From: a virus
Lineage: Duplodnaviria > Caudoviricetes
IMG/VR virus record: IMGVR_UViG_3300048066_000293
Coordinates: 1-54,854 of that record
Reading direction: 5' to 3' (one strand)
Length of the DNA: 54,854 bases
Part shown: positions 1,844 to 52,600 of the stretch, one piece after another
How the letters are laid out: the number at the start of each line of letters is the position of its first letter
Numbering within the stretch: the stretch's first letter is position 1
Made by a program: the position numbers and the translations under genes
Notes under the pieces: model-generated
What the model was told of the DNA's origin: nothing
What the model saw: the letters and a program-made list of their open reading frames with translations, nothing else
Database searches by the model: none

Positions 1844-2032
1844 ATTCCCTACATAGAGTAAAAAAAATTGTGCGCAAAAAAATTTAGGGAAGTACTTACA
1901 CATTTCCGAAAGGGGTTTTTGCGTGAGAAAAAATTGGCGCTGCGGTTTCATTAAGCATAGTACTTATAGTTTCAACCTGGTGATTTCTATACCCCCCGGC
2001 CTCGAGAAAATTTTTTTTTATTTTTTCTTTTC

Positions 2033-2062
2033 AAAAAAAAAGCAACCGTTTCCGATTGCTTT
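2033..2062 (-). terminator. Intrinsic terminator ending the minus-strand early array
   Basis: Minus strand AAAGCAATCG-GAAA-CGGTTGC followed by a T9 run. Confidence 0.85.
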
Positions 2063-2140
2063 CCCCACACTGAAGTTTTTATGTGAGCTAACGAGGAGGA
2101 GTTCTCAGTGTGTTTGTAACCTCCCCGCGCCCTTTAGCAG

Positions 2141-2506
2141 TTAGTCAGCTCTGCTGCCTGCATAGCAAGTAAAGCCAGCTGCCTTGAACACTTGCGCTGC
2201 CGCTCGTGCTCCTGCTTCCTTAGTACTCATACACTGAGTACCTAAGCCACTTGGGTTCCATATTGAATATGCTCCCGTGTAGTCCTTCTCAAAGCCTGCA
2301 CTCTTCATACGGCGTCCTAGCTTGGTGCTGCCTTTGATGCCGTAGATGTTGATCCAAGCAAAGCCACAGTAGGCATGCTCGCCGTACTGCTCTAGATGTG
2401 CGTTGGCTGCATCACTTGCATGTTGCAGTGCCGCTGCCTTAATAGCCTGTAGGTCCTCTACAGTGTAGTCATTAAGGTTAGTAGTTGTTAAGTTGATTGT
2501 AGTCAT
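2141..2506 (-). CDS. Hypothetical early phage protein (CGFAW motif)
   Basis: 121-aa ORF; own sigma70 promoter; GAGGGC leader at 2514-2519. Confidence 0.8.
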   Translation of the reverse strand: MTTINLTTTNLNDYTVEDLQAIKAAALQHASDAANAHLEQYGEHAYCGFAWINIYGIKGSTKLGRRMKSAGFEKDYTGAYSIWNPSGLGTQCMSTKEAGARAAAQVFKAAGFTCYAGSRAD

Positions 2507-2580
2507 TTAAGAAGCCCTCTTAATTTGTTAGTGTCTATACAGTATACGATCTAGTTGACTGTTTGTCAACCCCTAATTGC

Positions 2581-3168
2581 CTATGCTTCATACACTGTAG
2601 GACGTTGGATAGAGTTAGCATCACAGTAGATGTTGAGCTCGTCCAATACACTAGTAAGGAAGTTATACTTGCGCATCGCTTCAGCGTGGCTGATCTCTCC
2701 ATCACAGTGTAGGTTCTCTGGTGATAGTTCACCGTCCAGCTTTGATCCAATGTATTGTGCTGTTGAAGCATCTAGTGGGAACTCAATGCTGGCATCCTTA
2801 AAGATAGCGTTCCAGCTGTTGATCTGCTCTACATAGTTAGTGAGCACATCACCTGGAGTAGCCATAGTCTCGTCTAGGATCTTGCCTGGCACAAAGTTCG
2901 AATGCATGCCTCGTGAGTACTGTGCAAATGAACGGCATGGTTGACGATCCCAACGCTTGCCTTCCTTGGTCTTAGCCTCTACACCATGCTTGGCTCTGTA
3001 TGCATCCAAGAAGCGAGCCGCATCACAGTCGCCTTCTAGATATGCTGTTGAACCTTTTTGGTATGAGTATGCTGAGATTTGATCTGCAATGCCCAGTTCT
3101 TCTAGTTCTGACTTGCGAACTGCTAACCACTCGTGACCTGCATCTATTGCCCAAATATATGTCTTCAT
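2581..3168 (-). CDS. Hypothetical early protein, apparently two domains
   Basis: 195 aa; DAGHEWL...YLEGDCD N-terminal part and LSPENLHCDGE C-terminal part; GAGGGC at 3175-3180. Confidence 0.8.
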   Translation of the reverse strand: MKTYIWAIDAGHEWLAVRKSELEELGIADQISAYSYQKGSTAYLEGDCDAARFLDAYRAKHGVEAKTKEGKRWDRQPCRSFAQYSRGMHSNFVPGKILDETMATPGDVLTNYVEQINSWNAIFKDASIEFPLDASTAQYIGSKLDGELSPENLHCDGEISHAEAMRKYNFLTSVLDELNIYCDANSIQRPTVYEA

Positions 3169-3231
3169 GTTGTTGCCCTCTTTGCTAGTTTATGTATACA
3201 TTATATGATCTAAATTGAGGTTTGTCAACCC

Positions 3232-3510
3232 CTAATTTAGGTATTCTGTATTCTTTTTTAGGTACCATTTCTCCAGCACAGGAAGACCAAACTCGTCTTC
3301 GTCCACAGCCACGTATGCCACAGTCTTCTTGACTATAGCATAACGGTAGCCTCGCATGCCGCATACACCTTCACCACCTACCCAAACCTTGTGCGGAAAG
3401 TCTTCGCACCAGTTCATAGGATCATCGTTGAGTGAATATTCAAAGTAATTGCCCACTTCCCGCTCTACGAAGCAACCTATTGGATCTTTGGTGTAGGTGT
3501 AATATGCCAT
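3232..3510 (-). CDS. Hypothetical early protein
   Basis: 92-aa ORF; own promoter; TAGGGC and AAGGGC in the leader. Confidence 0.8.
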   Translation of the reverse strand: MAYYTYTKDPIGCFVEREVGNYFEYSLNDDPMNWCEDFPHKVWVGGEGVCGMRGYRYAIVKKTVAYVAVDEDEFGLPVLEKWYLKKNTEYLN

Positions 3511-3582
3511 GTGCTGTGCCCTTTGCCCTAACTGTTATATACAGTATACGATCTAATCGTGTGTTTGTCAACCATTATTTGT

Positions 3583-3749
3583 AAAAAAAAGCTCCCACTA
3601 GCGAGGGCACACTAGTGAGAGCTCCAGTCGATATGTGAGCGTGAGGGCATACTCTCAACATATCTAGTTGGCGCACAGCTCTTGATGGCTGCTTGCCAGT
3701 CGGTGCGTGGATGAGGGCGGTCCACTACACCATACAGTTCAGCGGAGCG
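3583..3749 (-). ncRNA. Candidate structured RNA / 3'-UTR sRNA: four hairpins, three with GCCCUC loops, the last doubling as a terminator
   Basis: Hairpins at 3701-3732 (loop CCGCCCUCA), 3669-3698, 3630-3664 (loop AUGCCCUC) and 3590-3623 (loop GUGCCCUC, then a U8 run); several stem mismatches become G-U pairs only on the minus strand. Confidence 0.75.
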
Positions 3750-4751
3750 TTATGCTCGACGCATCACCGTATTCTCTGCCATTGCTTCCCACTTGGTGGG
3801 GAATGCTTTGGCTAAGTCTGCGATCTTTAGTACTGTGCGCAATGACAGTTCACGCAGTCTGTTCTTGTTAATATCAACGAAGTCTACAATCTCCTCTTTG
3901 ACTTCATCTGACAGCTTGTATGCATCCAACATGCCATCATTGGTGACCTGCTTGATGCGTAGCATCTTGTCCTTGTCGGTATCGATCGTAAGATCCATAT
4001 AGTGACAACGCGACTCTAGTGCAGTCAAGTGCTCACGCAACTTGCCTTTGACTTTGTCAAACTTCATATTGGTAATGAAGATTGCACTTGCTTCGAACTT
4101 GAAGCTGTCTGGCACACCTTCGTTACGCAACTTGAAGCTGTCTGTGTTCCAGTGAATGGTGCGTGTCTTCTTAGAGTCTAGAGCAGCTTTTAGAATGTTC
4201 AAGCTCAGATCATCTTGGAAGATGCTGTCACAGTCATCAAACACCACAACGTTGCCTTTGGCACTCATGTTGAACAGCTTGCAGTAGAGGCCAATGGGCG
4301 ACATAGCACCTTTGATCACCTCGAACGATTTTCCGGCGCCCAACGACTCCATAGTCTTGTAGCGGTCTAGTACTTCTTCAACACCGTGGCTCTTACCTAC
4401 GCCCGGAGGGCCGGAGACGATCATTGCTCGCACATCTCCCTTTTTGACGGCTTTGGTCATGTCTTTCAACATTTCAAAACGTTCGCGGATGCGCTCTACA
4501 ATTTCAGCGTCTGACTCCTCGCGGACAGTTGTCTTGACATTCTCACCAACAAGCTCGTAACCCTCCGGGCCTAACACCTTAATCTTGATGTTCCGGTCCG
4601 GAAAACCGTTCACAGCCGCACCGTCGACTGTCACGTAACCTCCCTTTGCTCCTACTTTAAACTCTTCTACCATCGGAAACACAAGACCTGAAATGTCTGT
4701 ATCGTTGCCTCTGATCTTGTATGTGCCTTCAATAATTCTAATATTTGTCAT
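3750..4751 (-). CDS. AAA+/SF3-like P-loop ATPase (start revised to MTNIRII)
   Basis: Walker A GPPGVGKS, Walker B VVVFDDCD, motif C IFITN; the ORF-track start lies inside the promoter; GAGGGC at 4755-4760. Confidence 0.85.
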   Translation of the reverse strand: MTNIRIIEGTYKIRGNDTDISGLVFPMVEEFKVGAKGGYVTVDGAAVNGFPDRNIKIKVLGPEGYELVGENVKTTVREESDAEIVERIRERFEMLKDMTKAVKKGDVRAMIVSGPPGVGKSHGVEEVLDRYKTMESLGAGKSFEVIKGAMSPIGLYCKLFNMSAKGNVVVFDDCDSIFQDDLSLNILKAALDSKKTRTIHWNTDSFKLRNEGVPDSFKFEASAIFITNMKFDKVKGKLREHLTALESRCHYMDLTIDTDKDKMLRIKQVTNDGMLDAYKLSDEVKEEIVDFVDINKNRLRELSLRTVLKIADLAKAFPTKWEAMAENTVMRRA

Positions 4752-4807
4752 GTTGCCCTCGCATGTGTTAATGTATGTATACATTATATGATCAACTGTG
4801 CTAGTTG

Positions 4808-4975
4808 TCAACCAAAAATTAACCTAAGGATGATATATCCTACAACAATAGTCGTTGTCCACCATACTAGACTAGTCAGCATCTGCTCAATGAAACCTAC
4901 CTCTGTGTTACAAGAGTGGCACTTGGGAGCAAAGAAACCTTTATCCATAGTATGACAGTTCGGACATATCGCCAT
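4808..4975 (-). CDS. Small zinc-ribbon membrane protein (start MAICPNCH)
   Basis: CPNC...CHSC plus a C-terminal hydrophobic helix; GGAG SD; TAATG coupling. Confidence 0.7.
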   Translation of the reverse strand: MAICPNCHTMDKGFFAPKCHSCNTEVGFIEQMLTSLVWWTTTIVVGYIILRLIFG

Positions 4976-5115
4976 TATAAAACTCCAATCATCACGGTTG
5001 GTTGCAGCATCGCAGCTAACCATATCAGCAAACCTCCTGCAACAGCAAAGATGCTGCTGAGGATGCCCGTTTGCCAAAGTATTAATACCAAAAGAACTTT
5101 AAGGAGTGTTCTCAC
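4975..5115 (-). CDS. Small membrane protein, 46 aa (VRTLLKVLLVLILW...)
   Basis: Hand-translated; GTGA overlap with the upstream stop and TAATG overlap with the downstream start. Confidence 0.65.
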   Translation of the reverse strand: MRTLLKVLLVLILWQTGILSSIFAVAGGLLIWLAAMLQPTVMIGVL

Positions 5116-5303
5116 GCGAACATCTCCTCCCAAGCATCTGCTGTGATGCCTGTCTTGAAAAACTCGCGGTCGTCCGCGCTCAGTTGGGGGAATGCATTTT
5201 GGAGCAGCGCACCTGCTTCGTAAGCAGCAACTTGCTCTGGAGTAATATCCAGATCCATTGTGTTGACTTCACCGTTGAAAGGATTAGTACGTGTAATAAG
5301 CAT
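5112..5303 (-). CDS. Hypothetical early protein
   Basis: 63 aa (LLQNAFPQLSADDREFFKTGIT); own promoter. Confidence 0.8.
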   Translation of the reverse strand: MLITRTNPFNGEVNTMDLDITPEQVAAYEAGALLQNAFPQLSADDREFFKTGITADAWEEMFA

Positions 5304-5384
5304 GATGTTCCCTCTTTGATTGCCCTAACTGTTATAAACAGTATAACAGGGGTTAACGCAATTGTCAACCCCTATTATTAAGTT

Positions 5385-5630
5385 TTATGAAAAAACTTTA
5401 GCTCGTGAGCCGTTGACGTCACGTGCTGACACTGCATATCGTGCAGTACCTTTTGAGCTTGTGTCAACTCGGACGTTAAGTCCTGCTGAACGCAGTTCGC
5501 TCATTCGAGCAGCCAACTTCTGAATGCCGAATCGCGCATTCGCATCTGCTGCTGTCAAAGTCTTGCCTGTTCCACGTAGGTACGTTTCAAGGAAAGCCTT
5601 TTGATTAGTCTTAATAGTAGTAAATGACAT
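5385..5630 (-). CDS. Winged helix-turn-helix DNA-binding protein
   Basis: LT..DA..RFGI.KLAARMSELR..G pattern of phage wHTH (HTH_39-like); canonical GGAG SD. Confidence 0.75.
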   Translation of the reverse strand: MSFTTIKTNQKAFLETYLRGTGKTLTAADANARFGIQKLAARMSELRSAGLNVRVDTSSKGTARYAVSARDVNGSRAKVFS

Positions 5631-5749
5631 ATGTCTTTCTCCGTTTGCCTAAGTTTAAGTTTTAACAGTCTTTCTCTAACTGTTATATACAGTATAGCAC
5701 CTTCTGTGCTTTTGTCAACCCCTAATTGCATCTTTTTTGCAATTAATTT

Positions 5750-5836
5750 TGGTGCCTCCACCCAGACTCGAACTGGGACGCCATTACTAGCGAGAGATTT
5801 TAAGTCTCTTGTGTCTACCTATTCCACCATGGAGGC
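5750..5836 (-). tRNA. tRNA-Leu (TAA)
   Basis: GCCTCCATGGTGGAATAGGTAGACACAAGAGACTTAAAATCTCT...GTTCGAGTCTGGGTGGAGGCACCA; long variable arm; encoded CCA. Confidence 0.95.
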
Positions 5837-5840
5837 TAAT

Positions 5841-5917
5841 TGGCCTGCCCTGCAGGATTCGAACCTGCGACCCACAGCTTAGAAGGCTGTTGCTCTATCC
5901 AGCTGAGCTAAGGGCAG
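5841..5917 (-). tRNA. tRNA-Arg (TCT)
   Basis: CTGCCCTTAGCTCAGCTGGATAGAGCAACAGCCTTCTAAGCTGT...GGTTCGAATCCTGCAGGGCAGGCCA. Confidence 0.95.
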
Positions 5918-6082
5918 TTAGAAGTGTTCCTCCTGCTCTAAGTGACGCTCATACTCATCAGCTTGTGTTTTATAGTTGTTGAGCATGGTGTCCAGCTCTC
6001 TGCTGAACGTTGGTGAACATGCTGAGCCCGCTAGCCGCTTGAGGCGTTCGAGATTGTCGATGAAATCTAGCAGATCAATCAT
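5918..6082 (-). CDS. Hypothetical protein, 54 aa (MIDLLDFIDNLERL...)
   Basis: Hand-translated; TAATG coupling; stop codon abuts the tRNA-Arg 5' end. Confidence 0.6.
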   Translation of the reverse strand: MIDLLDFIDNLERLKRLAGSACSPTFSRELDTMLNNYKTQADEYERHLEQEEHF

Positions 6083-6276
6083 TACTGCACCCACACATGG
6101 TTAAACTTTGCGGGGTAGTTGGAGCAGTTGAATTGCTCGTCTGTGTAGTTAACGACCTTGACACACTGGTCTGTGCTGTAGCTGAAGTGTACATCTGGTA
6201 TCTTCAATGCTTCATTACCTGCATATGCTGCCAATGCAACCACTCCTGCTACTACTGCGCCTGTTAAATATTTCAT
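6082..6276 (-). CDS. Small exported or membrane-anchored protein
   Basis: N-terminal hydrophobic helix; two Cys; GAGGGC at 6282-6287. Confidence 0.75.
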   Translation of the reverse strand: MKYLTGAVVAGVVALAAYAGNEALKIPDVHFSYSTDQCVKVVNYTDEQFNCSNYPAKFNHVWVQ

Positions 6277-6317
6277 GTTCTGCCCTCTGTTTCCTAACTG
6301 TTATATACAGTATATGG

Positions 6318-6755
6318 TCAGTTGAACTCTTTGTCAACCACTTTTGGGTCAATATCTTGAAATAATTTCATGCCTAGGAAGTCCTGTTTGAGGATCTCTA
6401 GCATACGAACAGCTTCTTGTTGAGCTTCGCTGATGGCATCATCTACCATATCTTCTACTTGATCTTGCCCATCGTTTGCCAGCCACTTGGCAGGACTCTC
6501 ACTTACGATAGAGCCTAGATAGCTCTCGCCCATGACCTTGCCGTCATACTTGGCTTGGACTCTACAGATCATGTGCTGCCAAAAGCCTGACTCCAAGTTC
6601 TCGATCAGCTCTGGATAGTAGTCTGCATCTGTATCAAACAGGAGATCCAGCTGCGTATCGTCTGGTGCGAACGCAATCTCAACAATGAACTGATCTCGAT
6701 CGAACTGTTCTTCTACTTGATAGTTCGAGTTGTTTTCAAAAAAGGTATGTGTCAT
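6318..6755 (-). CDS. Acidic hypothetical protein
   Basis: 145-aa ORF; TAATG coupling. Confidence 0.75.
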   Translation of the reverse strand: MTHTFFENNSNYQVEEQFDRDQFIVEIAFAPDDTQLDLLFDTDADYYPELIENLESGFWQHMICRVQAKYDGKVMGESYLGSIVSESPAKWLANDGQDQVEDMVDDAISEAQQEAVRMLEILKQDFLGMKLFQDIDPKVVDKEFN

Positions 6756-6967
6756 TAAGCAAACTCTTCTTCCTGAGCTGATTCAATCAAGCTCGCTAGG
6801 GTTGTATCATAAGGATTAGAACTAGTACCAAACTCAAATGCACCGTAGGCTTCGCCTTGATCGTGCAAACTGGGACAGTTCTCTTGGAAAATTTCAGCAG
6901 CTTCTGCACCCAGTGCTGCCAGTTCTTCTTGGATCTGCTCCAAGCGTTGCATCATTTCATTATTCAT
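6755..6967 (-). CDS. Acidic hypothetical protein (start MNNEMMQ)
   Basis: GGAG before ATG 6967; overlaps the upstream stop. Confidence 0.7.
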   Translation of the reverse strand: MNNEMMQRLEQIQEELAALGAEAAEIFQENCPSLHDQGEAYGAFEFGTSSNPYDTTLASLIESAQEEEFA

Positions 6968-7175
6968 ATGACTCTCCAAAGTCTGCCCATTCCTGCTCCC
7001 AGGTAGGTTGCCCATCATCTTCGTCTTCGAAGAATCGCTCACTCAACTCGTTTGAGTCAAGCATGTCTTCAACATCATCGTTGCTCATATACTTGAGCGC
7101 CATAGTCAGCAGCTCTTCTGCTGATACCATACCGTTCTCAACAAGCTCTAATGCGATATCTCTGTAGTTTGCCAT
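6960..7175 (-). CDS. Acidic hypothetical early protein
   Basis: 71 aa ending DGQPTWEQEWADFGE; GAGGGC at 7184-7189. Confidence 0.8.
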   Translation of the reverse strand: MANYRDIALELVENGMVSAEELLTMALKYMSNDDVEDMLDSNELSERFFEDEDDGQPTWEQEWADFGESYE

Positions 7176-7247
7176 TTGCGTTTGCCCTCGCTTTGTTTAA
7201 CTATACATACACTATAACACCACTTGACGGTGCTGTCAACCCCTAAT

Positions 7248-7448
7248 TTAAATTAATTTCTCATACACAGCTTCACGAACGGCTGTGTCAGTTGCTTCCT
7301 CAAAGCCTTCCGCATGTCCCAGCTTGATCAGCTCGTGTTCTGCCCATTCCCAAACACGCTCGAATGAATCGAACTTGCGTAGTGCAACCCCTGCCTCAAC
7401 AATGCGGTGAACCAGTTCGTTGCCTTCTTTTGTAAACATCTCGTACAT
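7248..7448 (-). CDS. Hypothetical early protein
   Basis: 66 aa; own promoter; GAGGGC at 7453-7458. Confidence 0.8.
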   Translation of the reverse strand: MYEMFTKEGNELVHRIVEAGVALRKFDSFERVWEWAEHELIKLGHAEGFEEATDTAVREAVYEKLI

Positions 7449-7549
7449 ATTAGCCCTCTTCTTTATTGTTTAACTGTATACAGTATACAGTCTAATTAGG
7501 GGTTTGTCAACCCCTAATGTTAAAAAAGATTCCCTTGCAGATCAATGAC

Positions 7550-8089
7550 TTACATGTTTGGTGATAAATCAGTTAGATCTTCATCTTCTTCGTAATCTGC
7601 AAGCTGTTCATCTAGAGCAAACTCGTCTACGAGATACTCTGGAATCATGTTGCGAATAGTGTCTGAAGTTGCACTATCATACTCGTAATGGTCATCAGCA
7701 CCTTCTGAGTCCCAATAACCAACGAAGCACATGCCACTCTCGTGATAGTAGAGTTCAATGTAGCACGAGTCCCAGTCGTCTGCTAGACTGCTGAATGCTT
7801 CAATAGGCGGAGCCCATGCAGTATCGAACCAGCCAGTGATCTCAGCTGTGCCGTCACCATTGTCTACATACTCTAGGTGGACTTCAGGATCCCACTTGGT
7901 GCCCCAGTTGGTAACGCACCAGTCGTACCAGTTAGGAGTATCGCTAGGAGCCGTTGTGCCTTCTAGCTCTGCTGGCATAGGACAGATTGCTTGCAACAGT
8001 CCTTCGCCTGAGTCTACTACATCTTTGAGCTCTGACAGCGACTCAACAGCGCCGCGGATTGTGATTGTGTTGTTGCACCAATTAGGCAT
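7550..8089 (-). CDS. DUF1281/Api92-like ferredoxin-fold protein
   Basis: MPNWCNN start, WYDWCVTNWGTKWD, FDTAWAPP. Confidence 0.8.
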   Translation of the reverse strand: MPNWCNNTITIRGAVESLSELKDVVDSGEGLLQAICPMPAELEGTTAPSDTPNWYDWCVTNWGTKWDPEVHLEYVDNGDGTAEITGWFDTAWAPPIEAFSSLADDWDSCYIELYYHESGMCFVGYWDSEGADDHYEYDSATSDTIRNMIPEYLVDEFALDEQLADYEEDEDLTDLSPNM

Positions 8090-8537
8090 GATCTAAACCC
8101 TCCACTCGAACGTCTAAGCAGTCAAAGATTGGAAAGCCATTCTTGTCTTGGCCTACATGATAGCGGTCATGCACGATCCAACCGCTGGCTGTGTGCAAGT
8201 AAAAGAACTCGCAACCTGAGTCTGTGTAGTAGTCAACAAACTCGCCTACAGTGTCAAACTCAACTGCTTCTGTGTTTGACTCTCCTCTGTCACGTCCGTA
8301 GAAGATAATAACACCTTCTTCGGGTGTGTTGAAGCTGTGTGTCTTGACTGTTGGAAATACATTTGGAGCGATGATACTCTGATCGCCTAGCTCTACCATC
8401 TGTGCAATCTTGCGAGCCTCTTGGTAGTGCTGTTCCAGCATCACGCCTGTGTATGCAGGGTAGCCATCGTAGTGTGAATATTTTGCTCGGATCTTGCCTT
8501 CTGGAGTCTTGTAACCTATTGCGGAACGTGTTCCCAT
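8082..8537 (-). CDS. Conserved phage early protein (MGTRS...HYDGYP type)
   Basis: MGTRSAIG and YSHYDGYP motifs; GAGGGC at 8545-8550. Confidence 0.8.
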   Translation of the reverse strand: MGTRSAIGYKTPEGKIRAKYSHYDGYPAYTGVMLEQHYQEARKIAQMVELGDQSIIAPNVFPTVKTHSFNTPEEGVIIFYGRDRGESNTEAVEFDTVGEFVDYYTDSGCEFFYLHTASGWIVHDRYHVGQDKNGFPIFDCLDVRVEGLDHA

Positions 8538-8611
8538 GATATATGCCCTCTTGCTTTGTTTAACTTACTAATACACTATAACACCGAATGTGCTATGTGT
8601 CAACCCCTAAT

Positions 8612-8833
8612 TTAGTCTTTATCTAAAAAAGGTGCTTCTTCGATTGTTACTACATATGCCTTGCCGTTGCGGTCATGCACAGTAATAGTCTTCTTTGGTG
8701 ACACAAACCAACCGCCTACAGGATCTAGATCTGATTTGATCATCCCTGCTTCTGCTATGATCCCATCTGGGTCTGGCGCAGCAATAGCTTTTTTGATAGT
8801 GTCTGCGATCTTATCACAATATGCTAGTTTCAT
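8612..8833 (-). CDS. Hypothetical early protein (start MKLAYCD)
   Basis: GAGGGC at 8838-8843 precedes ATG 8833. Confidence 0.75.
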   Translation of the reverse strand: MKLAYCDKIADTIKKAIAAPDPDGIIAEAGMIKSDLDPVGGWFVSPKKTITVHDRNGKAYVVTIEEAPFLDKD

Positions 8834-8872
8834 CTTTGCCCTCATTTCCTAACTGTTATATACAGTATACGA

Positions 8873-9079
8873 TCAACTGTAGGTTTTGTCAACCTCTTTT
8901 TTGTGTTTTTTGAAACTTTTACGTAAGTCATTGATATTGTTGCGATAGTACTGTTCGAACGTATAGGGCTGCTCTTGCCCTATACTGTGATACTCATCTC
9001 GGTTCTCATAGTACTTGTTGGTGACGAACGCTCTGAACAGACTTGGTTTGAATGGATACATGCTGTGTCCGTGACTCAT
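8873..9079 (-). CDS. Hypothetical protein
   Basis: 68 aa; TAATG coupling. Confidence 0.65.
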   Translation of the reverse strand: MSHGHSMYPFKPSLFRAFVTNKYYENRDEYHSIGQEQPYTFEQYYRNNINDLRKSFKKHKKEVDKTYS

Positions 9080-9411
9080 TACATACTCCAGTAGGCTTCA
9101 GATGAAGGGCTCATATAATTAGGTGTGTTAACAGGCTCAACTATAGGCTTGCCTGACATCATGTTACTGGTAGTGCGACTCTTCTCAATTGACTTGTGGA
9201 AGTACTCTGCTTCTGCTATACCATAACGGAACACAGGATCATTCACAGTCTCCAGCAGGTCCGCTCTATAACGTTTGCTCATCCTAGTGAGCGCAGCTTT
9301 TGCAGCAGCCATTGTCTTGTAGCTCTGGCGGTGGTCTGGACGAACTTCACCTGTTCGTGTGTTCATCTTGCCCATAATGTAGGTGCTGGATTTTTCATAT
9401 ACGTAAAACAT
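9079..9411 (-). CDS. Hypothetical early protein
   Basis: 110 aa ending NTP..SPSSEAYWSM; GAGGGC at 9417-9422. Confidence 0.8.
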   Translation of the reverse strand: MFYVYEKSSTYIMGKMNTRTGEVRPDHRQSYKTMAAAKAALTRMSKRYRADLLETVNDPVFRYGIAEAEYFHKSIEKSRTTSNMMSGKPIVEPVNTPNYMSPSSEAYWSM

Positions 9412-9482
9412 TGTTTGCCCTCTCTGTTACGTTATATAAACACTATAGCACAAGTGCGCTATAGTGTCAAGTGTTTTTTAAA

Positions 9483-9752
9483 TTATTTGGCGCAATGTAC
9501 AATGCGCAAATAACGTGCATTAGGATGCACATTGTAAAATTTAGGTTTTGTTGCGTGTACTTTTGCAACGTTTAAGTTTAAAGCAATATGTTCCAAAACT
9601 TCATCTGTTAAATTTAAAGTTAAAAAACACAAGTTGCGCAAGTTGCTGTTAGCACATTTGTTTGTATAGCTGTGTGCGCTATACTTTACATTGTTTGCTT
9701 TTAAGATTTTGCGTACAATAGAACGTGCAGTTTTTGTTGTAGTGTTTTGCAT
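9483..9752 (-). CDS. Hypothetical early protein, compositionally constrained
   Basis: 89 aa with no Gly or Trp; own promoter; GAGGGC at 9758-9763. Confidence 0.7.
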   Translation of the reverse strand: MQNTTTKTARSIVRKILKANNVKYSAHSYTNKCANSNLRNLCFLTLNLTDEVLEHIALNLNVAKVHATKPKFYNVHPNARYLRIVHCAK

Positions 9753-9845
9753 GGGAAGCCCTCCATATGCATGTTACGTTATATAAACAATATAGCACAA
9801 GCAGCGCACTTTGTCAAGTAAAAAATGCGCTGCTGTGTAAGTTTT

Positions 9846-10106
9846 TTAACTTAGTGCTTCAAATGCTTCGTCTATAATATTATGCGCACTTGCGTCACTA
9901 GCAAAGCCCTCTTCTTCAGCAAAGTCTATGCTGCTGCTGTGCATAATAGTGTCTGTAAGCACACAAATGTTGTGCTGCAAAAATACTTGCACAAGTGCGT
10001 CTGCAGTTTGTACGTCATTTGCTACGCACACGTTATTAACATACACTTGCAGTGCAGCGTTTGCAGCGTTTAAAAATACGTAGTTTGTTTTTGTAGTAGT
10101 TTGCAT
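9846..10106 (-). CDS. Hypothetical early protein (start MQTTTKT), compositionally constrained
   Basis: GAGGGC at 10113-10118; no Pro or Trp and one Gly. Confidence 0.75.
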   Translation of the reverse strand: MQTTTKTNYVFLNAANAALQVYVNNVCVANDVQTADALVQVFLQHNICVLTDTIMHSSSIDFAEEEGFASDASAHNIIDEAFEALS

Positions 10107-10208
10107 ATTATAGCCCTCTATGCTAGTTAACTTATACATACACTATAGCACAAGTATACGTGTTTGTAAAGAGAAAAATGCACAGCTAACCTGTTGAAAA
10201 CATTGACA

Positions 10209-10354
10209 AATCAATCTTTTATTTGTGTTTAAAAACAATGACTTAGCAGCCCAGCTCAGAACTGTTCGAACATCGCCTCGCTACCCTGAGCCAAAAGAAC
10301 CCAACAATAACAATGAGTTAGCCGAAAAAAAACCCCAACGATATCAAAAGGTTA
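10209..10354 (+). promoter_or_regulatory. Cluster of four IHF-like boxes (WATCAANNNNTTR)
   Basis: AATCAATCTTTTA 10209, AAACAATGACTTA 10233, TAACAATGAGTTA 10308, TATCAAAAGGTTA 10342. Confidence 0.55.
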
Positions 10355-10487
10355 CAGATGTTCCCATATGCACACAGCAGCAGCAACGTTCAACGCTGCT
10401 AACCACACAAAGCTGATGGTGATGATTGCTAGTTCATACACAGTGAACCTCTCCTAAGCTCTACTAAGCTGCACAGTAGTAAGCCTC

Positions 10488-10757
10488 CTAGGCCACACTA
10501 AGCATACTAGCGGTCACACGCCAACGACCTGAAGTGGCAGTGTCCACAATCACAGTCTTGGGATTGACCTTGTGAACTGTGCCTTGAACCAAGACCCCGC
10601 CTCGACCGGTGAATGAAACTCGATCTCCCACTCGGATTGATCTCGCAGCACCTTTGGCCAGCGCAGTCCTACGCAGCTTTACAGCCTCAATTACTCGATC
10701 GATCTGGTCTGATGTCATAGTGTGAATAGCACTAACGGTAGTAGTAATATCTGTCAT
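10488..10757 (-). CDS. Small SH3/KOW-like protein (start MTDITT)
   Basis: IRVGDRVSF...GTVHKVNPKTV...WRV; AAGGGC leader. Confidence 0.75.
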   Translation of the reverse strand: MTDITTTVSAIHTMTSDQIDRVIEAVKLRRTALAKGAARSIRVGDRVSFTGRGGVLVQGTVHKVNPKTVIVDTATSGRWRVTASMLSVA

Positions 10758-10880
10758 GATGTTTTGCCCTTGTTTGTTTACGTTACATATACTACTATAA
10801 GCTCTAAACAACCATTTGTCAACCATTATTTTGAACGATTTTACGGTCAAGCGCAACTATACAAGAGTTACGGTGTAGCG

Positions 10881-11410
10881 TATATAGTAGTAGTAGGGAC
10901 TATAGTAGTAGACAGTATAGTAGTAGACCTCATTCCCTAGAGTGTGTGTAGTAGTATAGTAGTAGTAGAGGAGAGCGAGCAGCACGAGCGAATGGTCTTG
11001 TGCCTTGTGTACAGTAGTAGAGCTGTAGAGTAGGCTCAAAACCATGGTCACTAGCAGCGGGGCCTATTGCAAATGTGGCTTTTCTTGGGTGAATTTATCC
11101 TAAAAAATGTGGTTCTGGTGTAAAGAAACCATTGATTTCTTAACACTTTGGGTGTAACATAATAGGCGATTTCTTAACGGTTCTCGAGGTGAAGAGAGGC
11201 ATAGTTCAAATACTTTTGACCCTAAACCGTGGCATTACCATAAGTTTTTGTACGTACACTTTTGACTAGTTTCTTTACAGTGTGTGGAGATTAGTACAGT
11301 TTCTTTACAGTAGTAGACGCACACGTTAACAGCGGGGCCTTACTGTGCGCACAGTCTACTACTACTACTATAGTCATTACTACTACTACAGTCTACTCGA
11401 CTACTACTAT
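10881..11410. repeat. Non-coding region with TAG-rich left arm and CTA-rich right arm (imperfect inverted repeat) and internal direct repeats
   Basis: GACTATAGTAGTAGAC near 10898 versus GTCTACTACTACTACTATAGTC near 11354; CAGCGGGGCCT at 11055 and 11330; AGTTTCTTTACAGT at 11268 and 11298. Confidence 0.75.
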
Positions 11411-11625
11411 CACTGTGACTGTTGTTGTTGTGATTGTTCGCTTCTTTCTAGTAGTGTAGCAGCAGCTAAAGGTTCAATCCTATAGTTGCCTTTGTATTTT
11501 TTGTGTGCAAACTTATCTTGATAGTATTCCGCTATACGTTTGTTAGTAGTGGCTAGAACTACTACACCATCTACTACTAGTGCATAACCACTCTTGCCAA
11601 CATCTTCAATACACATACTACGCAT
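11410..11625 (-). CDS. Hypothetical protein (start MRSMCIE)
   Basis: TAAATA at 11631-11636, 5 nt before ATG 11625. Confidence 0.55.
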   Translation of the reverse strand: MRSMCIEDVGKSGYALVVDGVVVLATTNKRIAEYYQDKFAHKKYKGNYRIEPLAAATLLERSEQSQQQQSQ

Positions 11626-11690
11626 ATACATATTTATTCGGTGTTTTGTGTAAATACAATTATATACATACATAACACGAGGGCTATAGT

Positions 11691-11795
11691 ATGATACAAC
11701 TACAAACCAAATCGTTTGCGAGAGACTTTGCGGTATACTGTTCAGTGGGTTTCAACATTGGACTTGTGATAGGATTATTTCTCTACGTGTTCTAA
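11691..11795 (+). CDS. 34-aa single-TM peptide (MIQLQTKSFARDFAVY...)
   Basis: Hand-translated; GAGGGC at 11679-11684; TAAATA at 11651. Confidence 0.55.
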   Translation: MIQLQTKSFARDFAVYCSVGFNIGLVIGLFLYVF

Positions 11796-11833
11796 AAATT
11801 TTTTTAGAACGCTTCGCGCAGGTAAATATTTGC

Positions 11834-12655
11834 ATGAAGCAGCACCTATTAGTTGGAGGGGATTCATTTGCTGAGTTTCCTAGAGGCACTACAGATCCTA
11901 GAACACTAGAACGAGGTCGTCACGATGATCCTGTGCGCTCTTGGGATGGTTCAACACTGCATTGGTGTGAACAATGGGCAGCTCGTCACGATGTGAACGC
12001 ACACTCAGTTGGTTGGGGAGGCGCAGACAACACAGCAGCAGTCAACATGGTCACACGCGAACTCATGGGCTCAACTGCATACACACACTGTGTTTATTTT
12101 CTAACAGATCCCAACAGAACCTACAAGCGCAACACCAGTCATCTCACTAAAGGAGATCGACACTTTGACAAGCGAGACTATGTCTCTAGACGTTGGCAAG
12201 TCGGCTACAATTGGGATCACACCAATTGGCCTACAGCAATTGAATATCCTGAGGATGAAATGCCCTTGTGCGTGGGCAACACAGCAGCAAGCCTACGTTT
12301 CAACTCAATTCACAACAAAAAGTCAGCACCTTGGGAATGGATCAAGTACAGCATGAACCTAACACCTACACCTCAGCCTCTACAAAACACTGTGGCACAG
12401 ATTGCACTACTGAATTCACAGTGTGCAGCTCGTGGCATCAAGTTTATGGTCACAAGTGGGTTTTCATGGCCTAGAGCATTTGAAACGTGGCGCGACTCAG
12501 AATGTTATCCGCAATTTGCAAAGTTTGACTTTCAAGACCAAGTTCGTGTGAACCCAAAGACAGGATGGAAGTTGCGTTCACACTATACGCATTCAGAACA
12601 CACACAAATACTCAACTACCTAGAGTCACAAGGTCTAGATGGGTGGCTTACTTAG
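11834..12655 (+). CDS. SGNH/GDSL-hydrolase-like protein
   Basis: LVGGDSF near the N-terminus, GWGGADN, C-terminal SHY..H. Confidence 0.6.
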   Translation: MKQHLLVGGDSFAEFPRGTTDPRTLERGRHDDPVRSWDGSTLHWCEQWAARHDVNAHSVGWGGADNTAAVNMVTRELMGSTAYTHCVYFLTDPNRTYKRNTSHLTKGDRHFDKRDYVSRRWQVGYNWDHTNWPTAIEYPEDEMPLCVGNTAASLRFNSIHNKKSAPWEWIKYSMNLTPTPQPLQNTVAQIALLNSQCAARGIKFMVTSGFSWPRAFETWRDSECYPQFAKFDFQDQVRVNPKTGWKLRSHYTHSEHTQILNYLESQGLDGWLT

Positions 12656-51911: not shown

Positions 51912-52151
51912 AGGTAGACAAATATATCAAACTGTGTTATAGTATAACATAACAATTAGGGAGATAGATATGACTACATTTGAAAAGATTGAATTTGTTG
52001 TTGGTTTATCGTGTTTAGGACTTCTCCTATCACTATAAGCGAATACTCACAAACGTAGTATTGCTTTTATATTTTTGGTGCATTGACGAAGATCCAGAAA
52101 TGTGTAGACTAAAAAAGAAAGGTGAACAAACTTCTACTATTGAAATAGAGG

Positions 52152-52182
52152 TTGACATCTAGTATTACTTATGTTATAAATA
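52152..52182 (+). promoter_or_regulatory. tmRNA promoter: sigma70 site overlapping a full TATAAATA late box
   Basis: TTGACA 52152-52157, N17, TATAAATA 52175-52182. Confidence 0.8.
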
Positions 52183-52186
52183 GTAT

Positions 52187-52571
52187 TGTAACGTTGAAGC
52201 AATTCAAACGGCATACAGGACCCGGGGGCGGTACCCGGCAGCTCCACCATAAGCACATTTGGAAACACAATGAAGACACGTATTAAAATGCAAGGCGGCG
52301 ATGAGTTTGATGCTCTAAGCAAGAAGGCTAAAAATTACTATCATTGGAAACCAGGTGAACGCAAGAAGATTAAGCGTGGTTATAACAAAAGACTTCGCAA
52401 GTGTGCTTATGATGGGGCTGAAATAGGATCGACTGGTGTTTAATAGGAGAGTGGAGTTGCCCGGATGTAAGCTCGGTTAACGCGAACAAACTTAATAATT
52501 GCAAACGCAAATTATTCATTAGCAGCCTAAGGGCAGCTACGAGGTAGTTAGACCTTGTTACCAAACATAGC
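52187..52571 (+). ncRNA. ssrA: Circularly permuted two-piece tmRNA (acceptor piece about 52187-52249; coding piece from 52414; tag ANANYSLAA)
   Basis: T-arm CCGGG-GGCGGTA-CCCGG then CAGCTCCACCA, upstream of GGGGCTGAAATAGGATCGAC; G3-U70 pair; tag frame 52501-52530; outer ends approximate. Confidence 0.95.
52270..52443 (+). CDS. 57-aa basic protein encoded in the tmRNA intervening segment
   Basis: MKTRIKMQGGDEFDALSKKAKNYYHWKPGERKKIKRGYNKRLRKCAYDGAEIGSTGV; hand-translated, below the ORF-track cutoff. Confidence 0.6.
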   Translation: MKTRIKMQGGDEFDALSKKAKNYYHWKPGERKKIKRGYNKRLRKCAYDGAEIGSTGV

Positions 52572-52600
52572 AGAAAAGCATCTTCGGATGCTTTTCTTTT
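52572..52600 (+). terminator. Intrinsic terminator after tmRNA
   Basis: AGAAAAGCATC-TTCG-GATGCTTTTCTTTT. Confidence 0.9.

Follow-up and report, generated by a model that had tools for sequence, protein, structure and literature searches.

Early-gene leaders of an uncultivated marine giant phage carry a motif complementary to the loops of a structured RNA encoded in the same block

Background

Among enterobacterial small RNAs (sRNAs), CpxQ and SroC are derived from 3' untranslated regions (3'UTRs), lie directly after a stop codon, share the terminator of the messenger RNA (mRNA) and act with Hfq through one linear seed, not through repeated loops, and the sponge RNAs CsrB and RsmZ are composed of many hairpins with GGA loops that bind CsrA and RsmA. 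In this study, we analysed the IMG/VR virus record IMGVR_UViG_3300048066_000293 (Duplodnaviria; Caudoviricetes), a linear entry of 54,854 bases that was taken whole and is called the window hereafter. Its promoter-proximal early genes mostly carry the motif GAGGGC, referred to as the tag, at the ribosome binding site, and a structured non-coding RNA that follows the gene of an AAA-type ATPase presents the complementary GCCCUC in its hairpin loops. Like CpxQ and SroC, this phage RNA lies after a stop codon and shares the mRNA terminator. It also resembles CsrB and RsmZ in repeating the same short motif in each of many hairpin loops, but its loops hold (U)GCCCUC without GGA and are complementary to mRNA leaders. 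The record, with a CheckV completeness of about 16%, is a fragment of a marine giant phage and carries ribonucleotide reductase, tail-fibre-like and lysis genes; a search of phage records for near-identical DNA returned matches to transfer RNA (tRNA) genes only and no cultured close relative.

Three other systems act at ribosome sites. RNAIII of Staphylococcus aureus and the Rsa sRNAs of this bacterium, for instance RsaE, are described as pairing C-rich UCCC loops with many mRNAs at their Shine-Dalgarno (SD) sequences and blocking initiation complexes (PMC2790875). The c4 RNA of phages P1 and P7, according to a review, has loops complementary to the ribosome-binding region and blocks translation, and matching differences between the two phages underlie their heteroimmunity (PMC12197685). 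In phage T4, RegB and RegA inactivate early mRNAs as a class at their ribosome sites, and these early products act on their own mRNA (PMC3014915).

Results

GAGGGC in the leaders of promoter-proximal early genes

The minus strand of the window between 2141 and 10822 is a run of short genes under 15 near-consensus sigma-70 promoters, hereafter the early block. GAGGGC occurs 20 times in the window against 9.69 ± 3.07 expected, a count reached by none of 100 shuffled sequences, and all 12 of its minus-strand copies lie within 2514-10118 (binomial p = 5e-11); the twelfth of these (9906) falls in a coding frame. All 11 exact copies that the initial annotation had reported before early genes were found, and its near matches, AAGGGC at 3518 and 10766, TAGGGC at 3525 and 5322 and GAGGGA at 5309, were in place as well. 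The leaders concerned are given below, the base that follows the hexamer standing in brackets where it was noted and distances being in nucleotides (nt).

2514..2519, minus strand: GAGGGC, 7 nt before ATG 2506 (gene of 121 aa)
3175..3180, minus strand: GAGGGC(A), 6 nt before ATG 3168
3518..3530, minus strand: double near match UAGGGCAAAGGGCA, before ATG 3510; AGGGCA, the complement of the UGCCCU loop, is kept in both copies
4755..4760, minus strand: GAGGGC(A), 3 nt before ATG 4751 of the AAA-ATPase gene
5309..5327, minus strand: near matches UAGGGCA (5322-5327) and GAGGGA (5309-5314), before ATG 5303
6282..6287, minus strand: GAGGGC(A), before ATG 6276
7184..7189, minus strand: GAGGGC(A), before ATG 7175
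7453..7458, minus strand: GAGGGC(U), before ATG 7448
8545..8550, minus strand: GAGGGC(A), before ATG 8537
8838..8843, minus strand: GAGGGC(A), before ATG 8833
9417..9422, minus strand: GAGGGC(A), before ATG 9411
9758..9763, minus strand: GAGGGC(U), before ATG 9752
10113..10118, minus strand: GAGGGC(U), before ATG 10106
10766..10771, minus strand: near match AAGGGC(A), before ATG 10757
11679..11684, plus strand: extra GAGGGC, 6 nt before ATG 11691 of a hydrophobic 34-codon open reading frame (ORF; 11691-11795)

As the initial annotation had stated, 14 of the 15 promoter-proximal early genes are tagged, 11 with exact GAGGGC and three with near matches, and the remaining one (ATG 5630) has GGAGA; AGGGCA, the exact complement of the UGCCCU loop, is kept by four of the five near matches in the window. 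The plus-strand copy at 11679, which that annotation did not include, has an early-like leader behind a weak upstream promoter (9/12) and is likely a further instance of the tag. The restriction of the tag to one class was assessed with a table of start codons from our own ORF caller, comprising 89 ORFs (some of them doubtful), 15 promoter-proximal and 74 other. GAGGGC was found upstream of two of the 74, TTG 19886 and a doubtful ATG 31319 (Fisher p = 2.6e-9). The internal early genes have GGAG, GGAGG or no SD, and the rest of the phage genes in the window use AGGAG, GGAG or GAGGA, which implies an ordinary anti-SD in the host and not the 16S tail pairing with GAGGGC that the initial annotation had named as counter-evidence. 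GGAG is absent from 10 of the 11 GAGGGC leaders. By standard knowledge it is also correct, as had been pointed out, that only GAGG pairs with the canonical anti-SD, and the 16S tail thus leaves GC(A) unexplained; to our knowledge, the CCUCC of that tail is near-universal.

A structured RNA presenting the complement of the tag

Three of the eight plus-strand copies of GAGGGC, which read GCCCUC in minus-strand RNA, lie within 116 nt, at 3603, 3643 and 3713 (p = 5e-7), in the 3'UTR of the ATPase gene. The predicted fold of this RNA has a minimum free energy of -71.7 kcal/mol (z = -4.70), a value matched by none of 200 shuffles, and each GCCCUC copy falls in a hairpin loop, with 6-7 nt exactly complementary to 11 of the window's leaders. 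No Rfam match was found for 3400-3900 up to E = 10. The parts of the locus are as follows.

3583..3752, minus strand: structured non-coding RNA forming the ATPase 3'UTR from stop codon to T-run, with several hairpins, three of them showing GCCCUC
3713..3718, minus strand: loop 1, GCCCUC in GUGGA-CCGCCCUCA-UCCAC
3643..3648, minus strand: loop 2, GCCCUC in GAGAGU-AUGCCCUC-ACGCUC
3588..3625, minus strand: terminator hairpin of 16 pairs with the loop UGCCCU (GCCCUC at 3603-3608), followed by the T-run
3750..4751, minus strand: early gene of an AAA-type ATPase (333 aa, phrog_1250); its place next to the RNA, on the upstream side, is conserved

The terminal hairpin is the strongest terminator-like site within 2000-12000, and since the block has no other strong terminator, many early transcripts may end at the RNA. 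Because the ATPase leader is tagged and the ATPase 3'UTR is the RNA itself, the RNA's own mRNA belongs to the tagged set. In a protein search, the closest cultured relatives of the ATPase were those of PA5oct-like Pseudomonas phages (46.7%) and of T4-like phages (about 35%), and a relative is annotated as nrdC.10 in the T4-like Edwardsiella phage PEi20; in PA5oct, the ATPase gene directly abuts other genes and no such RNA is evident. Assembled contigs from four seawater RNA runs span much of 2000-11000, the RNA included, and are of a kind from which ends, strand and level cannot be read.

Conservation of the RNA in relatives

A profile search with the ATPase identified 586 contigs that encode it, and the 80 best were retrieved. 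Among 99 ATPase loci, the C-terminus together with 120 nt or more of downstream sequence was present in 96, and these comprise 91 distinct loci. An RNA of the same kind, with 1-5 GCCCUC hairpins on differing stems, directly follows the ATPase gene in 17 of the 91 distinct loci, and across these 17 RNAs the GCCCU bases are unpaired with a predicted probability of 0.89, as compared with 0.39 for the rest. UGCCCUC is invariant in a gapless alignment of 28 of 28 distinct hairpins, which had been selected for containing this 7-mer. The seven flanking pairs covary (0.419 versus 0.171 ± 0.033 in shuffled alignments, none of 500 shuffles being as high, and at most 0.24 in slid controls), and compensatory changes were found in five of the seven pairs of the terminal hairpin. 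Stem conservation was judged by these covariation counts and not by a free stem scan at GCCCTC, which has a high background (at least four pairs at 40 of 54 sites versus 165 of 354 controls). A 21-mer covering promoter and transcript start, present four times in the window, was also found in 56 IMG/VR stretches, several of them on contigs of 236-328 kb.

Over all fetched loci, 187 GAGGGC sites are SD-positioned. The distance from the C of the motif to the ATG is 3-8 nt in the window and 3-7 nt at 160 of the 187, which places GAGG 5-9 nt from the ATG, at the spacing of a purine-rich SD. A promoter lies at most 75 nt upstream of 146 of the 187 sites, with 19-25 nt from the -10 hexamer to GAGGGC in 120 of these 146, and A follows the motif in 140 of 185 sites, as the counterpart of the U in front of GCCCUC in the loops. 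In the position table, the flanks of the tag are A-rich and not conserved, and in the predicted folds of tagged leaders the motif is mostly unpaired (mean probability 0.67). The duplex of AGAGGGCAA with the loop GUGCCCUCG was calculated at -14.2 kcal/mol, versus -6.3 kcal/mol with a canonical anti-SD tail used in place of the host's own, and the late-type AAGGAGAAA gave -3.5 kcal/mol with the loop versus -8.4 kcal/mol with the same canonical tail. The loop energies are for the loop alone, as runs with the whole 170-nt RNA are noisy because any part of it may pair.

Leader and loop motifs change together between clades

When 6-mers enriched in leaders and 3'UTRs were searched de novo within each clade of the ATPase loci, the following motifs were obtained.

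Clade A, 17 loci: leaders, GAGGGC (93 observed, 3.7 expected), then AGGGCA; 3'UTRs, GCCCTC in 17 of 17, then TGCCCT (16 of 17)
Clade B, 10 loci: leaders, AGGAGC (77), GGAGCG (70) and GAGCGA (52), each with about 2 expected; 3'UTRs, TCGCTC, CGCTCC and GCTCCC, each in 10 of 10
Clade C, 14 loci, more distant and weaker: leaders, AGGAGC (21 observed, 1.1 expected); 3'UTRs, GCTCCT in 11 of 14

The leader and loop motifs are thus matched within each clade, as GAGGGCA with UGCCCUC in clade A, GGAGCGA with UCGCUCC in clade B and AGGAGC with GCUCCU in clade C. The clade-B motifs lie in hairpin loops (probability of being unpaired 0.92 versus 0.40) and the clade-C motif lies mostly in loops (0.77 versus 0.42); an Rfam search with the clade-B RNA returned a chance snoRNA match only (E = 3.4). 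SD-positioned counts amount to 111 GAGGGC and one GGAGCG in clade A and to two GAGGGC and 75 GGAGCG in clade B. The extension goes with promoters in both clades, GC following GAGG in 81 of 100 promoter-proximal starts of clade A versus 12 of 60 starts without a promoter, and CG following GGAG in 57 of 70 versus 11 of 59 in clade B. At the 50 loci that have no RNA directly after the gene, CG follows 79 of 132 promoter-proximal GGAG, and many of these loci have a CGCUCC hairpin about 0.8 kb farther downstream (clade-D loci).

Two side observations concern these clades. In clade-A RNAs, ACGCUCCGC is kept right after the ATPase stop codon (3735-3752 on the minus strand of the window, and loci L045, L048, L055 and L066); it includes CGCUCC, the loop motif of clade B, here partly buried in a stem, and may be a relic of an older address. 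In clade-B loci L120, L127, L135, L139, L141 and L144, repeated GGTCGG...GGGGCATATA-like strings replace the sigma-70 promoters after the RNA and may represent a different, phage-specific promoter type.

Restriction of tag and hairpins to one block

Sites of the form GAGGGC-N3-8-ATG cluster on one strand, in one block of about 8-12 kb, in four large relatives, with 0-3 sites per record for reversed-pattern controls.

Relative of 275 kb: 19 of 24 sites in the block
Relative of 237 kb: 18 of 29 sites in the block
Relative of 155 kb: 19 of 20 sites in the block
Relative of 262 kb: 12 of 16 sites in the block

A frequency before late genes equal to that before early ones, named by the initial annotation as evidence that would count against a class-specific motif, was therefore not seen, the motif being confined to one block in the four relatives instead of spreading genome-wide. 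The GCCCUC hairpins of each of these four GAGGGC-type genomes form one cluster, which lies within the tagged block and shares its strand, and one further isolated pair match occurs at 173.6 kb in G002. A complete relative of 328 kb has two GAGGGC sites and no GCCCUC cluster. In two clade-B genomes, a single block ending with the ATPase gene holds 14 of 15 and 14 of 18 of the GGAGCG sites.

Promoters and other features of the early block

Promoters and possible control sites of the block are listed below.

2541..10822, minus strand: 15 early promoters of the sigma-70 type, TTGACA-N16/17-TATAnT with at least 10 of 12 consensus matches
First-hexamer starts of these promoters, minus strand: 10822, 10170, 9817, 9470, 8892, 8603, 7510, 7239, 6337, 5718, 5368, 4811, 3571, 3228 and 2569
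3531-3545, 5328-5342, 5679-5693, 6297-6311 and 8852-8866: copies of the perfect palindrome ACTGT-N5-ACAGT
5385-5630, minus strand: gene of a winged-helix HTH_39 protein, the sole promoter-proximal early gene without the tag, with a long leader and GGAGA

A stricter promoter pattern retains 13 early promoters in the block, and the early leaders are about 24-31 nt long if transcription is assumed to start 7 nt past the -10 hexamer. In five early promoters, the palindrome overlaps both the -10 hexamer and the start of the transcript (five copies versus 0.14 expected); it looks like the operator of a dimeric repressor or an mRNA 5' hairpin, and the HTH_39 protein is a candidate for its regulator. 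A metatranscriptome contig at exactly 5347-5689 has the top contig depth in three runs, contig depth being a quantity that cannot rank genes. Immediately 5' of TTGACA, most early promoters have a conserved ATTAGGGG (e.g., 7511-7518, 8604-8611 and 3229-3236), which in some units pairs with CCCCT downstream of the -35 hexamer to form a hairpin across the promoter.

Genes for tRNA-Leu(UAA) and tRNA-Arg(UCU) are located within the early block (5750-5917, minus strand), where they directly follow a small gene and have no promoter to themselves. Between the early block, which runs leftward, and the plus-strand unit at 11679, the gap is filled by short tandem repeats rich in TAG/CTA (periods 3, 15 and 18; 10885-10968 and 11351-11409), which could be a regulatory or origin-like spacer. 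Farther away, a permuted two-piece transfer-messenger RNA (tmRNA) gene was identified at 52136-52585 on the plus strand (Rfam tmRNA_permuted, 108.5 bits; alpha_tmRNA, 86.8 bits), with ANANYSLAA as the tag peptide predicted by ARAGORN, and may hint at the host lineage.

Discussion

With moderate confidence, we favour the explanation that a trans-acting anti-leader RNA occludes early ribosome sites and thereby exerts class-specific control, and the phage probably regulates its early genes jointly by means of this RNA. The initial annotation had proposed a class-specific address read by an RNA or a protein. The address idea stands with the RNA at 3583-3749 as its favoured reader, given the complement in three loops, the covarying stems and the joint change between clades, and a protein reader, though conceivable, is not needed. 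Leaders and loops are kept complementary, which implies pairing, and pairing between them is well supported by the comparison of sequences; since the duplex covers the SD core, we infer that the RNA competes with the 30S ribosomal subunit and represses the tagged genes, and pairing in the cell, the repressive effect and a role as timer all have this standing.

According to this proposal, the promoter-proximal early mRNAs would bear in GAGGGC(A), on their short 5' leaders, a signal of two parts, in which GAGG is an ordinary, weak SD core at normal spacing and GC(A) prolongs the complementarity to (U)GCCCUC, not to 16S rRNA. The RNA would be made from the early block and would probably accumulate there, and its loops would pair with tagged leaders across the ribosome binding site. 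The resulting duplex would block 30S binding and would be likely to speed mRNA decay, so that early proteins, the ATPase among them, would be limited and shut off together. The untagged internal, middle and late genes, having AGGAG, GGAG or GAGGA, would still reach the ribosome.

A number of observations weigh against such a role. Pairing involves only 6-7 nt, with no chaperone known, and four of the 11 exact leaders in the window have U instead of A after GAGGGC. The RNA is made concurrently with its targets, and the fragment has three loops for at least 12 tagged leaders, which leaves the stoichiometry of a shut-off uncertain. As a discrete, abundant species it is a prediction, the metatranscriptome data that cover it being assembled contigs. 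An AT-rich subclade of 10 loci beside clade A, and likewise the relative L050, have no RNA directly after the ATPase gene; AGGGCA occurs in 4 of 12 leaders of that subclade, which are too few to judge. The leader type switches once on the ATPase tree (90 rows), and so the covariation between clades A and B represents a single evolutionary event, though one kept at hundreds of sites, and clade C is weaker because GCUCCU can arise by chance.

The same complementarity and covariation would fit a positive or protective pairing, by which the RNA stabilises early mRNAs, shields their sites from a nuclease or hands them to ribosomes. An RNA that is expressed from early promoters together with its targets could help them as well as restrain them, and the GAGG core alone is a weak SD (-6.3 kcal/mol). 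The duplex, however, covers that core, so loop and 30S would compete, and the leaders are predicted to be largely unstructured, with the motif unpaired at a probability of 0.67, leaving no obvious inhibitory fold to open. In addition, the known sRNAs with C-rich loops acting on the SD repress translation (PMC2790875), and on the whole a helper RNA appears unlikely.

It is also conceivable that the RNA serves mainly in competition between phages, silencing a same-tag relative's early genes during co-infection or superinfection, with the switch of tag between clades as the means of escape. The pairs GAGGGC/GCCCUC, GGAGCGA/UCGCUCC and AGGAGC/GCUCCU are private to their clades, differently tagged relatives are present in IMG/VR and within the same seawater RNA libraries, and loose ends in the metatranscriptome join related but different 3'UTRs to the same ATPase end. 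A parallel is offered by the heteroimmunity of P1 and P7, for which the review describes loop-borne complementarity of c4 RNA to the ribosome-site region (PMC12197685). On the other hand, nearly all early units of the phage's own genome are tagged, which would make self-targeting unavoidable, and there is a single switch on the tree; we regard this purpose as improbable.

Alternatively, a phage or host protein might bind GAGGGC/GCCCTC as a double-stranded DNA site, placed in one orientation behind early promoters and clustered in the other after the ATPase gene, with the RNA complementarity as a by-product. This is in keeping with the fairly narrow distance between the -10 hexamer and GAGGGC (19-25 nt in 120 of 146) and with DNA-level control in the block, to which the separate palindromic, operator-like site at early promoters points. 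The clustered motif, however, is always found in loops with covarying stems, an arrangement meaningful for a single strand only, and in both clades the motif holds the SD core at SD spacing in strict strand orientation, so that a DNA site has a quite small probability.

Even less credit is given to hitch-hiking, by which GAGGGC would simply have spread with a promoter-leader cassette through duplication or gene conversion, its GC having no function. Promoter and initial transcribed sequence are indeed very alike between units, with the 21-mer occurring four times in the window, but sequence and length between transcript start and GAGGGC vary, the flanks are not conserved and the motif is exact. 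AGGAG takes its place in relatives whose promoter and start sequence are the same, and the matching loop RNA would go unexplained.

Similarly small is the chance that the tag spares early mRNAs from a nuclease directed at GGAG, like RegB of T4, or from a GGAG-aimed sRNA, an option raised by the initial annotation. It agrees with the absence of GGAG from 10 of 11 GAGGGC leaders and with the cutting by RegB of GGAG in early T4 ribosome sites (PMC3014915). Against it, the tag of the sister clades, GGAGCG, itself contains GGAG, no RegB-like PHROG match was obtained among the 64 proteins scanned in a window covering about 16% of the genome, and the conserved C/A and the loop RNA would be left unexplained. 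An unusual host 16S tail or another rRNA site pairing with GAGGGC is hardly credible, as AGGAG, GGAG or GAGGA precedes the non-early genes of this phage, the tag is confined to one block of about 10 kb in genomes of 155-275 kb, and related clades put another extension on the canonical core.

Returning to the anti-leader RNA, we tentatively propose, as a possibility held with some doubt, that a whole lineage of uncultivated phages with nrdC.10-like ATPases, many of them giant and many marine, uses a private and evolvable translation address, consisting of a clade-specific SD extension of 2-3 nt on promoter-proximal early mRNAs that matches the loops of a phage RNA and not the ribosome, and that this RNA acts both as a timer of the early class and as an RNA-based determinant of immunity among competing phages. 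Neither the tag nor the RNA was found described in the literature searched, including a 2025 review of phage sRNAs (PMC12197685), supplementary sRNA lists being outside the scope of that search. If leader and loop do pair as proposed, this would be the first phage, within that literature, to mark a whole temporal class by a uniform SD extension read by its own multi-loop RNA, and the conserved non-ribosomal part of the ribosome site would be explained. It would also add an unannotated RNA family (91 distinct loci examined among 586 ATPase-encoding contigs), offer a compact orthogonal pair of tag and RNA with natural variants, and give a simple rule, based on sequence, by which early genes could be called in contigs of uncultivated giant phages.

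With respect to known systems, the phage RNA is like RNAIII and RsaE (PMC2790875) in having 1-5 unpaired C-rich loops and ending in a terminator hairpin; those RNAs are bacterial and read their targets through ordinary SDs and individual flanks. The phage RNA differs from them in that a uniform SD extension marks a temporal class and that tag and loop change together between clades, and there is no sequence or Rfam relationship. The likeness to c4 is one of mechanism only, namely loops complementary to phage ribosome sites with matched differences between related phages (PMC12197685), and c4 controls one operon, that of the antirepressor, in temperate phages. Here, unlike c4, at least 12 separate early transcription units of an apparently lytic giant phage, with no lysogeny genes seen among the 64 proteins scanned, carry the target, and the RNA is a 3'UTR with 1-5 identical loops and no Rfam match. 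RegB and RegA are proteins, RegB, aided by S1, reading GGAG together with A-rich 3' sequence, and the reader proposed here is an RNA; no homologue of either was detected among the 64 proteins scanned in this record of about 16% of the genome. Since the RNA resides on the ATPase mRNA, which bears the tag too, it would follow the same self-acting logic as these T4 proteins (PMC3014915), and the RNA, if it acts as proposed, would be the RNA counterpart of the protein-based early shut-off by RegB and RegA in T4.

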